A program made the position numbers. Of a DNA stretch of 41,714 nucleotides, positions 15,001 to 18,000 are shown piece after piece. Source of the DNA: a virus (lineage: Duplodnaviria > Heunggongvirae > Uroviricota > Caudoviricetes); the IMG/VR virus record IMGVR_UViG_2537562190_000018. One strand, 5' to 3'. How positions within the stretch are numbered: position 1 is the first letter of the stretch; every line of letters starts with the position of its first letter.

Positions 15001-18000
15001 CACAAACGCCAGCGGTACCACATAGGACACCGGTTTACCCTTCAGGCGAAGTGAAAACGTTGCAGCCACCACGCCGTTGGTACCGGATGACCAGGTGTGC
15101 TGACGCACTTCCGCCAGGAACTTAAAGCCCTTACCGGACGGAAACTGCACCTTAAACGCATACACCGTGTCATTGTCATAGGCATCACGCAGGGCGTTCT
15201 GGGCCTGATTCAGATAAAAATTACCCGACATGGAAATCTCGGACGACGCCCCCAGACCGTTGATGTTCTCCTGCTCTGTGGAGCAGAGCGTGGTCACATC
15301 AATATCCTGTTTCTGACCGGCGGTGAACTGGACTTCCTTGATGGTGCAGTCCAGGCGCAGATATTCCGCCTTATCCATAGTTTCAGCAGTCGCCGGGGCA
15401 GATGAAATCATCACCTGCGTCAGCTGTGAGCGTTCATACAAAGCAGACATTCTGCCTCCTGATAATAAAAAACCCGCACGCGGCGGGGTATGGGTTTTGT
15501 AGAAAAAAGAAAAAGTCACACCGTGACCTGAAACTCCAGGGTTGCACGGTAACAGCGGTTTTCCGGAATATAGTCCTGCATTTCACTGACGGATCCCGGG
15601 GCCAGCAGCATTATGGCTTCACGGGCGTCCTGACGTATCTGACGCGCCTGCGTCACAGTCCCGGCATAAACGTCTATCTGCACCGACACTGAGGACTCCG
15701 CCTGCCCGCCCATCACGTCCGCCGACACCGATGAAATCAGGCTGAAAACCACCCACGGAAGCGCCACCGACGGCCTGCCATCCAGCAGGGGGACCACATA
15801 CGGGTACACCTGCCCGCCGGCAAGATGCGCCAGATGAGGATACAAATCCGCCTCCGTCATCGTCTCAGTACCTCATCAATGGCCCGGTTCATCCGCGCAA
15901 TCGCCACCTGTGCCGCCTGTTCACTGCGCACATCAAATGCCGGGCGCACAAACGGGTGCGGTGGCATATTCACGGTCCCCATTTCCACAAACCGCCAGTA
16001 GAAGGCATTGCGGGGATTATCCGCCTTCATGGTGTTATCACTGTTGCCGGTGTCCGGATTAACACCACGGATATGCACACCGGATTCCATCCCGCCATCG
16101 CGGGAACGCCAGGAAAGGACCACCACATTGCGGCGCAGTTTTCCCCTGCGCACCGGTGCCCGTGACACCACTTCGTCTTTCAGTTCATTCGCCCCCGCGC
16201 GGGTTGCCTCACGCAACACCCGGTTGTTTTCCGCACCACTCAGAAGCTGCAAATCGCGGCTGATGTCCTCCAGCCCCGAAAAATCCAGCAGGGTTTCGAT
16301 CATTTTTCCCCTCCCAGCCGACAGAGAATTTCCAGACGCCCGCCGGTTGCATCCGGAACCGGGACCCCGACGACATTCAGGACATGGTCACGCCAGGGAC
16401 CACTCAGCACATGAAGTCGTGACGCCGCCGTGATTTCACGACCAGACTGACCGCGCACCCAGATGCGGATTTCCGCCTGCGCCATTTCCGCACCGGACTG
16501 CATCCGCTCCCGGCTGCTCCTGCCCCGGATATCCGCATGAATTTTCCCGCATGACACCCATTCTTCCGTCATTTCTCCGGCAGCATTACGGGTTAACACC
16601 GGGTTCAGAACACTGATCATCTGTGTCAGACGACCTGCAGATATTGCCATCCCCCCCTCCTCATAACACCGTCGGACAACGCAAATCGTAAATCAGCACG
16701 GAAACAGAAAACGGCAGTTCCCCCTGCACGAGGTCTTCCCGCTCAGCAAGATCCGGATTCCGGTACAGCATCCCGGTCAGTCGCATGGCAGCCCCCTTCA
16801 TCCGGGTTAATGCCTCACCAGGGATCAGCTCACCGTCCTCACTAATCACTTTATCCCGGCTGCCCTGGATGTAGGCCAGCAGCACGGCGGTAGCCTGACG
16901 AACCTTGTCCATCAGCATCTCATCATCCGCGTCATGGTCAACACGCAGATGTGCCTTGATTTCTTCCAGTGTCAGTAATGCTGTCACTTTCCACCTCCTG
17001 CATCCCGCCCACGTTTTGCAGCCAGAGTCCAGCCTGATGAATGAGCTTCTCCGGGCTTATCACCGGTCATACTGTTGCAGTGCCACAACGAGCCCCCCCA
17101 CGTCACCGTATCGCCGGGGTGGTAAGTTTCGCCGGTTCTGAACACACCACGGTAGAGCATCACCGGCAGGGAAAATGTTTTTTCCGTACGCTGGCCACTG
17201 CTCTGCCGGACCACCACAGAGAACGACCGTTCACCCGTCATGCTGACGTCAATATCCGCCACCCCGTCAACCAGGCATTCCCATCCCCGCATCCCGTACG
17301 TTTTTTCATACGCCCGCCAGAGTCCACCCTGGTGTGTGGCATACGAGCCCCGGGGAAAGGATTTTTGATCGTCAATGGCGGGGAGTATTTCCAGTGCCAT
17401 GGCATCACGCCCGTCCTGCGGAGCCGGCAGGGCACTCACCGCCTCCAGAACCGCCTTCTGCAGAACATCCGGATCGTAGTCACGACCATCACGCGGAACA
17501 GGAATATGGCTCACTGCCTCTTTCACCATCTGCTCAATCATCGGACGCACATCATCGGGGGTGATACTTTTACCGTCCGCCGGTACCGGTATTTTCCCGA
17601 CCGCATCATTCACCGCCTGCTGCAGTACATCCGGATCATAGTCACGACCATCACGCGGAACAGGGATATGGCTTGCTGCGTCCTTCACCATCTGCTCAAG
17701 CATCGGACGCACATCATCACCCGTCACGCACTTCTGTAATACCACAGACTGAGAAGCCAGTTTTTCTTCAAACGTTTGTGCCTGCGCGGCTATTTTCTCC
17801 TCAAATGTACGCTGTAAATCCGCCAGCACCATGGCGAATTCTTCGCCCAGTGCACGAATAATGGACAGTTCCCGTTCCGTCATTTTCGCAGTATCCCCCT
17901 GAACATCGCTTTCACCGCATCATGCTCTGTTTCACTGATTGCCTTATTACCGTCAGATGCGCCATCAGGCAGTTGTGCTGAGACTGTTTTCCCGGACGAC

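Follow-up and report, generated by a model that had tools for sequence, protein, structure and literature searches.

The gene described here, called X, encodes a protein of 299 amino acids (aa) and lies in the head module of a tailed virus (IMG/VR virus record IMGVR_UViG_2537562190_000018, Caudoviricetes). "The window" denotes the whole stretch of DNA that was analysed, 41,714 nucleotides long. The X protein is likely to be a low-copy partner of the portal protein, and not a scaffold, a protease, a decoration protein or a portal domain. Tentatively, it is placed as a minor head protein tethered to the C-terminal crown of the portal. The crown side is preferred because the order of the genes and the start/stop overlap with the portal gene are conserved (70 of 72 and 74 of 80 loci in two samples), because X is fused in frame to the portal C-terminus by one extra G in 25 of 80 Escherichia coli loci, and because selection on X is unrelaxed in the fused alleles. 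It is further preferred because the C-terminal domain is the best conserved part across three proteobacterial classes, unlike a host-specific receptor-binding tip, because mini versions without a stalk exist, and because the carbohydrate-binding module (CBM) at the end of X is also found paired with a lone prohead protease. The features at the locus are as follows.

Positions 16984 to 17883, minus strand: gene X, 299 aa, ATG start; PHROG matches phrog_2271/1289 ("portal protein") and phrog_16748/8767 (unknown).
Positions 17880 to 19244, minus strand: HK97-type portal gene, 454 aa, PF04860 (E=7e-81), with a tail of about 70 aa beyond the Pfam domain.
Positions 16661 to 16987, minus strand: gp6-like head-tail connector gene, PF05135, GTG start.
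Positions 17880 to 17883, minus strand: ATGA overlap of portal stop and X start, a translational coupling (X ATG at 17883-17881, portal TGA at 17882-17880).
Positions 16984 to 16987, minus strand: GTGA overlap of the X TGA and the connector GTG, read from the sequence.
Positions 16994 to 16999, minus strand: perfect AGGAGG Shine-Dalgarno sequence of the connector, within the last X codons.

Given the two start/stop overlaps and the Shine-Dalgarno sequence, portal, X and connector form a translationally coupled chain. The 3' end of X reads GCA GGA GGT GGA AAG TGA (AGGGK and stop) and holds both the AGGAGG and the GTG start of the connector (16984-16999). With the Shine-Dalgarno sequence placed there, the ribosome-binding site of the downstream gene may have shaped the glycine-rich tail at the C-terminus of the protein.

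Long-tailed lambdoid prophages of enterohaemorrhagic E. coli, namely Stx1a and Stx2c phages, phage 1717 and BP-4795-like phages, match the window region at 95-100% identity. X belongs to the head module of long-tailed Stx1, Stx2c and related prophages. The portal-X region was matched in 1246 of 5426 complete E. coli genomes; positive genomes carry it in a median of three places, with a maximum of 20. An exhaustive profile-free search for the X family returned 5696 cluster representatives at E<=1e-3, with lengths from 214 to 1237 aa. With a profile of the C-terminal domain, 80 loci were fetched from bacteria represented by one genome per species (GTDB), 72 of which hold both portal and X. X directly follows the portal in 70 of these 72, in the order large terminase, protease/capsid (fused or separate), portal, X, connector. 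The hosts are Enterobacteriaceae, Pseudomonas, Burkholderiaceae, Comamonadaceae, Rhizobiales and one metagenome-assembled genome of Clostridia. The exceptions are L118 (Variovorax) and L126 (Sphingobium), with about 3-3.8 kb between the detected portal fragment and X. A second sample, of 80 diverse IMG/VR contigs, has X next after the portal in 74. In nearly all relatives the start of X overlaps or adjoins the stop codon of the portal gene, as ATGA, TGATG or ATGnnnnTGA.

An earlier note, made from the sequence of the window alone, had reported an open reading frame between the portal and connector genes, translationally coupled to the portal. Both statements agree with the 299-aa gene between its PF04860 and PF05135 neighbours and with the ATGA at 17880-17883. 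The same note had regarded the gene as inserted at a position where head modules normally have none. That view has to be given up for this head-module lineage, since the position after the portal is fixed in both samples, across alpha-, beta- and gamma-proteobacteria. X is a conserved, widespread family and not unique to the prophage of the window. No experimental or structural work on the family was found in the literature. It comprises thousands of members without assigned function, most of them mislabelled "portal protein", "frameshifted portal" or "gp6-like connector".

The fusions to the portal arise at a short G run close to the end of the portal gene.

Positions 17895 to 17899, minus strand: run of five G (G5) in AGG GGG, the Arg-Gly codons near the portal C-terminus; Shine-Dalgarno-like, 11 nt before the X ATG.

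In G5 alleles (window, BP-4795, phage 1717) the portal ends with ...AMFRGILRK and a stop, and X starts from its own ATG. In alleles with six G (G6) the portal reads through as ...AMFRGDTEKMTERELS... into X, giving a single open reading frame of 812-1028 aa (stop to stop). The E. coli sample of 80 loci (IMG/VR prophages, four named phages and the window) contains 55 G5 and 25 G6 alleles. G6 was found on at least four haplotype backgrounds, and the G5 locus L066 has 600-nt flanks identical to those of seven G6 loci. Phage 2851, which is reportedly infectious, carries the fused gene (859 aa, "portal protein (GP3)"); WGPS6 and YYZ-2008 are also G6. A portal-X fusion of independent origin exists in a Pantoea prophage (P0248/L103). 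Elsewhere in the Enterobacteriaceae these codons are AGAGGAT, without a G run. The run is therefore the Arg-Gly of a conserved C-terminal motif of the portal and probably serves as ribosome-binding site of X as well; in E. coli it is slippage-prone by chance.

The ratio of nonsynonymous to synonymous polymorphism (pN/pS) is 0.2-0.3 for the N-terminal 50 codons and for the C-terminal domain; for the latter it is 0.185 in G6 and 0.218 in G5 alleles, values to be read with the reservation that recombination between prophages may blur the association of G state and X allele. Purifying selection on X is not relaxed in the fused alleles. The fused alleles explain the labels "portal protein" and "frameshifted" that databases attach to X: PGAP labels portal and X jointly "phage portal protein, frameshifted", and PHROGs assigns X to two families named "portal protein", one of 859 positions. 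The G5/G6 polymorphism makes annotation pipelines flag intact prophages (the G5 copies) as defective.

The record of phage phi330 (L166, PV189401.1, 1798-4540) contains G6 together with a second indel upstream in the 3' end of the portal gene. The genes for X, gp10 and the tail tube are each split in two. Errors of sequencing are the probable cause of these features, the genome having been assembled by hand from Sanger data. The record was therefore treated as unreliable on the matter of a clean portal-X fusion in a plaque-forming phage.

The X protein is composed of an N-terminal helix, a repeat region and a C-terminal domain.

Positions 17737 to 17883, minus strand: N-terminal long helix, aa 1-49, with a heptad-like hydrophobic pattern; AlphaFold2 helix 3-49 at a predicted local distance difference test score (pLDDT) of 66-75; proposed portal-docking element.
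Positions 17569 to 17730, minus strand: repeat unit 1, aa 52-105, two 27-aa half-repeats, each a PxPxDGxD loop and an amphipathic helix.
Positions 17407 to 17568, minus strand: repeat unit 2, aa 106-159, sharing 124-126 of 162 nt with unit 1.
Positions 16987 to 17406, minus strand: C-terminal beta domain, aa 160-299, the most conserved part; AlphaFold2 mean pLDDT 83.8 from an alignment of 37 sequences.
Positions 17008 to 17157, minus strand: CBM5/12-like module, about aa 243-292.

What is conserved across the family are the two ends only; the middle ranges from nothing to more than 25 half-repeats. Among enterobacterial relatives the invariant residues of the N-terminal helix are M1, E3, R4, E5, S7, G13, E15 and F16, and homologues of the helix are recognisable even in alpha-proteobacterial members. 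The C-terminal domain has a mean column identity of 61% and 29 invariant columns among alpha-, beta- and gamma-proteobacterial representatives that are 47-66% identical to the window. The N-terminal and repeat part is acidic (isoelectric point, pI, 4.2-5.1), the C-terminal domain near neutral. Mini forms, consisting of the N-terminal helix and the CBM with the repeats absent, occupy the same slot after the portal in IMG/VR contigs and measure 146-170 aa from stop to stop. P0123, P0146 and P0248 are long forms. P0123, P0146, P0153 and other long members had been considered as portal fusions, which was rejected; they are repeat-rich instead. The loops expand to true collagen G-X-Y runs in P0239, P0236 and P0181, and PF01391 is precomputed on P0341, P0343 and P0346. 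No collagen run (at least five G-X-Y triplets, or PF01391) was found in X of the window.

The repeat search gave a direct repeat at a spacing of 162 nt (17411-17556 versus 17573-17718) with 82% identity over 146 nt. Counted by offset, the full unit shares 126 of 162 nt (78%) and the core (17599-17730/17437-17568) 109 of 132 (83%). The best score in 500 codon shuffles was 69 of 146, so the repeat is far above chance. Tandem Repeats Finder reported nothing for X, as is to be expected when there are less than two copies and these have diverged. The 54-aa unit consists of two half-repeats of 27 aa, in which the PxPxDGxD loop is followed by an amphipathic helix of 13-17 residues; PxPxDG motifs are present four times, at aa 74, 99, 128 and 153.

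In the 80 E. coli loci X is 299 aa (8 loci), 353 aa (21), 405/407 aa (43), 461 aa (7) or 569 aa (1) long, and a form of 245 aa is common in the protein database. All of these lengths fit 245+54n aa, n running from 0 to 6 and being 1 in the window. Where the allele is longer, its internal units agree at 153-162 of 162 nt, and divergence is greater in the first and last units; X of the window retains only the two edge units, with 124 of 162 nt shared. The X repeat is a coding minisatellite, a variable number tandem repeat, with copy differences of whole units among close relatives and near-identical internal units. Many database entries for X are "partial", which fits breakage of short-read assemblies in the minisatellite. 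It is also a potential typing marker. The earlier note had recognised the 162-bp duplication and suspected that it was prone to expansion. The duplication is confirmed, at about 80% identity and not at the roughly 90% that had been given, and the tendency to expand is evident from the relatives, whose internal units are 95-100% identical in DNA in the longer alleles. The C-terminal part is indeed unrelated to the repeats, as had been stated, and comprises about 140 aa (aa 160-299) instead of about 120.

The full-length AlphaFold2 model has a mean pLDDT of 52, too poor for a fold search, and the C-terminal domain alone was searched; the stalk is of low confidence in this monomer model. In its modelled three-dimensional structure the C-terminal module has the CBM5/12 fold. 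A viral structure library yields as its neighbours proteins with collagen repeats that end in a ChiC-type module, some of them superposing at 1.0-1.6 A over 54-57 residues. By sequence, PF02839 (CBM_5_12) matches X of the window with 19.9 bits, under the gathering cutoff of 26.2. Relatives score 20.5-25.5, and only a mini version from Sphingomonas passes, with 28.9. W262, W267 and W285 are conserved in the C-terminal domain. The usual sugar-binding residues of CBM5/12 are an exposed aromatic pair, WW or WY; the corresponding position in X reads NSMT or DEQT. The segment GTYATHxGGLWRAYEKT...GWEC ahead of the CBM repeats the GDTVTWGGSLWHC...W motif, and from its sequence such a module may be present twice.

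Sequence searches of the PDB with the X protein and with a profile of 16 sequences returned noise only, and no solved structure matching the stalk. The NCBIfam and PADLOC libraries contain no match to X, and no match to the minor head family of SPP1 gp7 and Mu F was found in Pfam, PHROG or PDB. X is not an HK97-type portal itself: PF04860 does not match, and TIGR01537 hits only the portal half of the fused P0025. It is also no scaffold or prohead protease, a homology that the earlier note had raised as evidence against its own proposal. X has no S78/U35 or scaffold match; the S78 domain lies in the capsid fusion at 19456-21393.

A cassette without portal or capsid gene was observed at four further loci, three from Sphingomonas and one IMG/VR contig. 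It consists of a stand-alone homologue of the S78 prohead protease, followed directly by a mini X of 97-104 aa (N-terminal helix and CBM).

L151, positions 4204 to 5177: protease and mini X.
L152, positions 4319 to 5312: protease and mini X.
L144, positions 3682 to 5189: protease and mini X.
L167 (IMG/VR): protease and mini X.

The protease homologue is 217 aa long in two of the three Sphingomonas loci. Neighbours of the cassette are a TIR-domain protein, an MmeI-type restriction-modification enzyme, a PifA homologue (E=2e-116) and a DpnII/MboI-type nuclease. The cassette has no PADLOC match. Its setting may be a defence island or a satellite.

X is translated from the portal message by coupling, in the chain portal, X, connector. 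In the favoured reading, the N-terminal helix would dock on the flexible C-terminal tail of the portal, with which it would be covalently continuous in G6 alleles. To our knowledge, the portal C-terminus lies inside the head in all known portals, and docking would place up to 12 copies of X within the head, at the crown of the portal. The acidic helix-loop repeats act as a spacer of freely variable length, and their number would shift by unequal recombination between the 162-bp units at little functional cost. The C-terminal module would bind a host-independent partner; candidates are the glycan strand of peptidoglycan after release, or the protease/scaffold part of the capsid fusion during assembly. 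A direct precedent is phage 80alpha, where the C-terminal residues 488-511 of the portal crown are needed to incorporate the minor capsid/ejection protein gp44 (PMC12889711). The homologue ORF007 in the PAJU2 record is not among the proteins labelled structural, which fits a low copy number, as weak evidence. Phage phi330, of the genus of 2851, uses OmpC through a J-like central fibre (PMC12502783), and X is accordingly not the primary receptor binder. Virion proteomics of the X family was sought in published work: mass spectrometry in the phi330 paper covers podophages only, with nothing on X, the Ab31 paper is without proteomics, and in the Pseudomonas phage AH14a the module is of another kind, the MuF type. 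X-carrying phages are not mentioned in the Virfam neck paper.

Several observations weigh against a crown-side tether. X looks like an external fibre, with an acidic stalk of pI 4.2-5, the loops of its relatives become genuine collagen G-X-Y runs, and the fold of its end domain is known from chitinases, tail fibres and tailspikes. We know of no internal head protein with such features. The fusions could be tolerated without being of use; the ATG and the Shine-Dalgarno-like G run persist in G6, and free X could still form. Outside the E. coli lineage with the G run, one fusion only was found. The internal position of the portal C-terminus is taken by analogy from other portals, and the full-length model of X is poor. 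The earlier note had suggested a surface protein. The fold and the type of repeat likewise suggest a fibre, but the in-frame fusions to the portal C-terminus point the other way.

Such a fibre could belong to the neck (collar), which is the main rival reading; in function it would resemble the whiskers of T4 fibritin or the neck fibres of cyanophage A-1(L). Twelve N-terminal helices would sit on the portal clip or the adaptor outside the head and form about four trimeric, coiled-coil or collagen-like stalks, whose CBM knobs would touch surface glycans weakly and reversibly. The G6 fusions would be tolerated, X being accessory or still made from its internal start. Besides the fibre-like composition and the collagen runs of relatives, the CBM5/12 fold is common to tail fibres and tailspikes, the X gene adjoins the neck genes and is coupled to genes of 12-mer ring proteins, and length variation of this tandem-repeat type is typical of exposed proteins. 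The neck fibres of phage A-1(L) are neck-anchored trimers with a distal carbohydrate-binding module (PMC10966104). This arrangement is nevertheless considered somewhat unlikely: portal C-terminal fusion is widespread with selection unrelaxed, and conservation across very different hosts is highest in the distal domain. The aromatic pair of CBM5/12 is replaced by non-aromatics such as NSMT, mini versions have no stalk at all, and the cassette of module and prohead protease occurs outside phage heads.

A role in assembly only is improbable. As an adaptor, X would bind the portal by its N-terminal helix and the protease/scaffold part of the capsid fusion by its C-terminal domain, nucleate the procapsid on one portal ring, and then be degraded or expelled, being absent from mature virions. 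X strictly co-occurs with modules in which the protease/scaffold is fused to or precedes the capsid and the portal gene comes after, its CBM is paired with a lone S78 protease, the PAJU2 homologue is unlabelled as structural, and the acidic, helical composition resembles that of scaffolds. However, X has no scaffold homology, collagen-like runs and a CBM fold are unexpected in a scaffold, and the highly variable length of the spacer is hard to square with geometric bridging.

A capsid decoration protein or head fibre, as phi29 gp8.5, T4 Hoc or phage L Dec, would have its C-terminal domain on the capsid lattice and the stalk and helix pointing outward. The conserved domain could match the conserved capsid protein, and the shape of X is fibre-like, but coupling to the portal implies a portal-like low dosage and not tens to hundreds of copies. 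The PAJU2 record does not label the homologue as structural, an X fused to the portal would be unable to bind the lattice, and no match to decoration families was found. This placement is very improbable.

Least probable of all is that the G run acts as a site of programmed -1 frameshifting or as a phase-variable switch, by which each phage would make portal and portal-X in a regulated ratio. A slip of the P-site tRNA-Gly on G GGG in the G5 allele would yield the fused sequence of G6 type (RGDTAKM), the codon after the run is AUA, rare in E. coli, and G5 and G6 alternate between close relatives (L066 and the seven G6 loci), but there is no X XXY YYZ slippery heptamer at the run, the sole hairpin downstream lies 36 nt off (z=-2.3) and not at the 5-9 nt of a stimulatory structure, other Enterobacteriaceae lack the run, the frame of X against that of the portal is +2 in 47 loci and +1 in 23, so that a frameshift is not conserved, and a tract of 5-6 nt is short for phase variation at a high rate. 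A conserved programmed frameshift like that of the tail chaperones G/GT was rejected, as neither the frame relation nor the run is conserved and there is no nearby structure and no heptamer.

If the tethering of X to the portal crown is true, X would be a new type of portal accessory in a head lineage without structural study. A bolder version of it would have X as a new class of crown-tethered internal head proteins, in which a lectin-like module sits on an acidic, partly collagen-like tether. The G run would switch between non-covalent and covalent attachment to the portal in Stx-phage lineages. The N-terminal helix and CBM with a stand-alone protease in defence islands would be a unit derived from phage heads and co-opted, for instance as satellite or anti-phage element. 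We give this version as a whole only a small chance.

Other genes of the module in the window are the following.

Positions 23115 to 23678, minus strand: small terminase gene.
Positions 21457 to 23118, minus strand: large terminase gene.
Positions 19456 to 21393, minus strand: fusion of S78 prohead protease and major capsid protein, 645 aa, with S78 at aa 48-152, a coiled-coil linker and an HK97-type capsid domain at aa 386-635.

On the minus strand the order is small terminase, large terminase, the 645-aa protease/capsid fusion, a small open reading frame, portal, X and connector. The connector is followed in the 3' direction by genes for head closure, gp10-like protein, tail completion, an Ig-domain tail tube, tail chaperones and tape measure. 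The portal gene comes after the protease/capsid open reading frame (19456-21393), not before, and the same arrangement, with protease and capsid fused or split, was found in all X-carrying relatives. The tail tube protein (14734-15519, minus strand) has a C-terminal Ig-like domain (Ig_2, aa 182-256); the GTG at which its listed open reading frame begins lies upstream of the annotated start in relatives (717-nt gene, NZ_CP027766). An HNH endonuclease gene (23968-24333, minus strand) lies directly upstream of the small terminase. Pairing of HNH and small terminase is known from HK97-like cos packaging modules.

The combination of a portal-adjacent minor protein, CBM5/12, collagen-like or helical repeats, a minisatellite and coupling or fusion to the portal is undescribed; each element is familiar. 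Phage 80alpha gp44, like X, has its gene shortly after that of the portal; it is a low-copy head protein, as is proposed for X, and is recruited by the C-terminus of the portal crown (PMC12889711). Neither gp44 nor SPP1 gp7 has sequence or Pfam similarity to X; both are globular/helical proteins that bind DNA ends, whereas an acidic stalk of repeats and a CBM5/12 end domain make up much of X. Further portal-adjacent examples are SPP1 gp7 and minor head proteins of the Mu F type, and MuF-type domains also occur fused to portals. In GP3 of the Stx2c phage 2851 (CAQ82041, 859 aa; phrog_2271) the C-terminal 405 aa are X with three extra units, and X of the window matches phrog_2271 at 618-859. Portal and X are one polypeptide in phage 2851 (G6), and are encoded by two genes in the window, in BP-4795 (ORF58/59) and in phage 1717 (gp59/gp60).

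The chitin- and cellulose-binding CBM5/12 modules of Serratia ChiB, Streptomyces ChiC and Erwinia EGZ differ from X, in which the Pfam match is below threshold, the exposed aromatic pair is not conserved and no catalytic domain is attached. Collagen-repeat phage fibres with a ChiC_BD module (BFVD A0A6J5QQP7, A0A6J5R3V1 and others) are similar in the end module (1.0-1.6 A over 54-57 residues, 33-37% identity) and share G-X-Y runs with some X relatives. Unlike X, they are annotated or presumed tail proteins with long collagen regions; X of the window has only PxPxDGxD loops and is encoded in the head module. The gene of T4 fibritin (wac) adjoins neck genes. Fibritin and gp80-82 of A-1(L) are elongated, probably trimeric accessories of the portal vertex, with a distal carbohydrate-binding module in A-1(L) (PMC10966104). 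These neck fibres have no homology to X, fibritin is not known to be fused to the portal, and attachment of X to the neck is putative. Finally, the C-terminal barrel of the P22 portal is a long helical extension into the head interior. P22 has a portal of a different family, without repeats or a beta end domain, but the N-terminal helix of X in G6 alleles likewise continues the portal chain.

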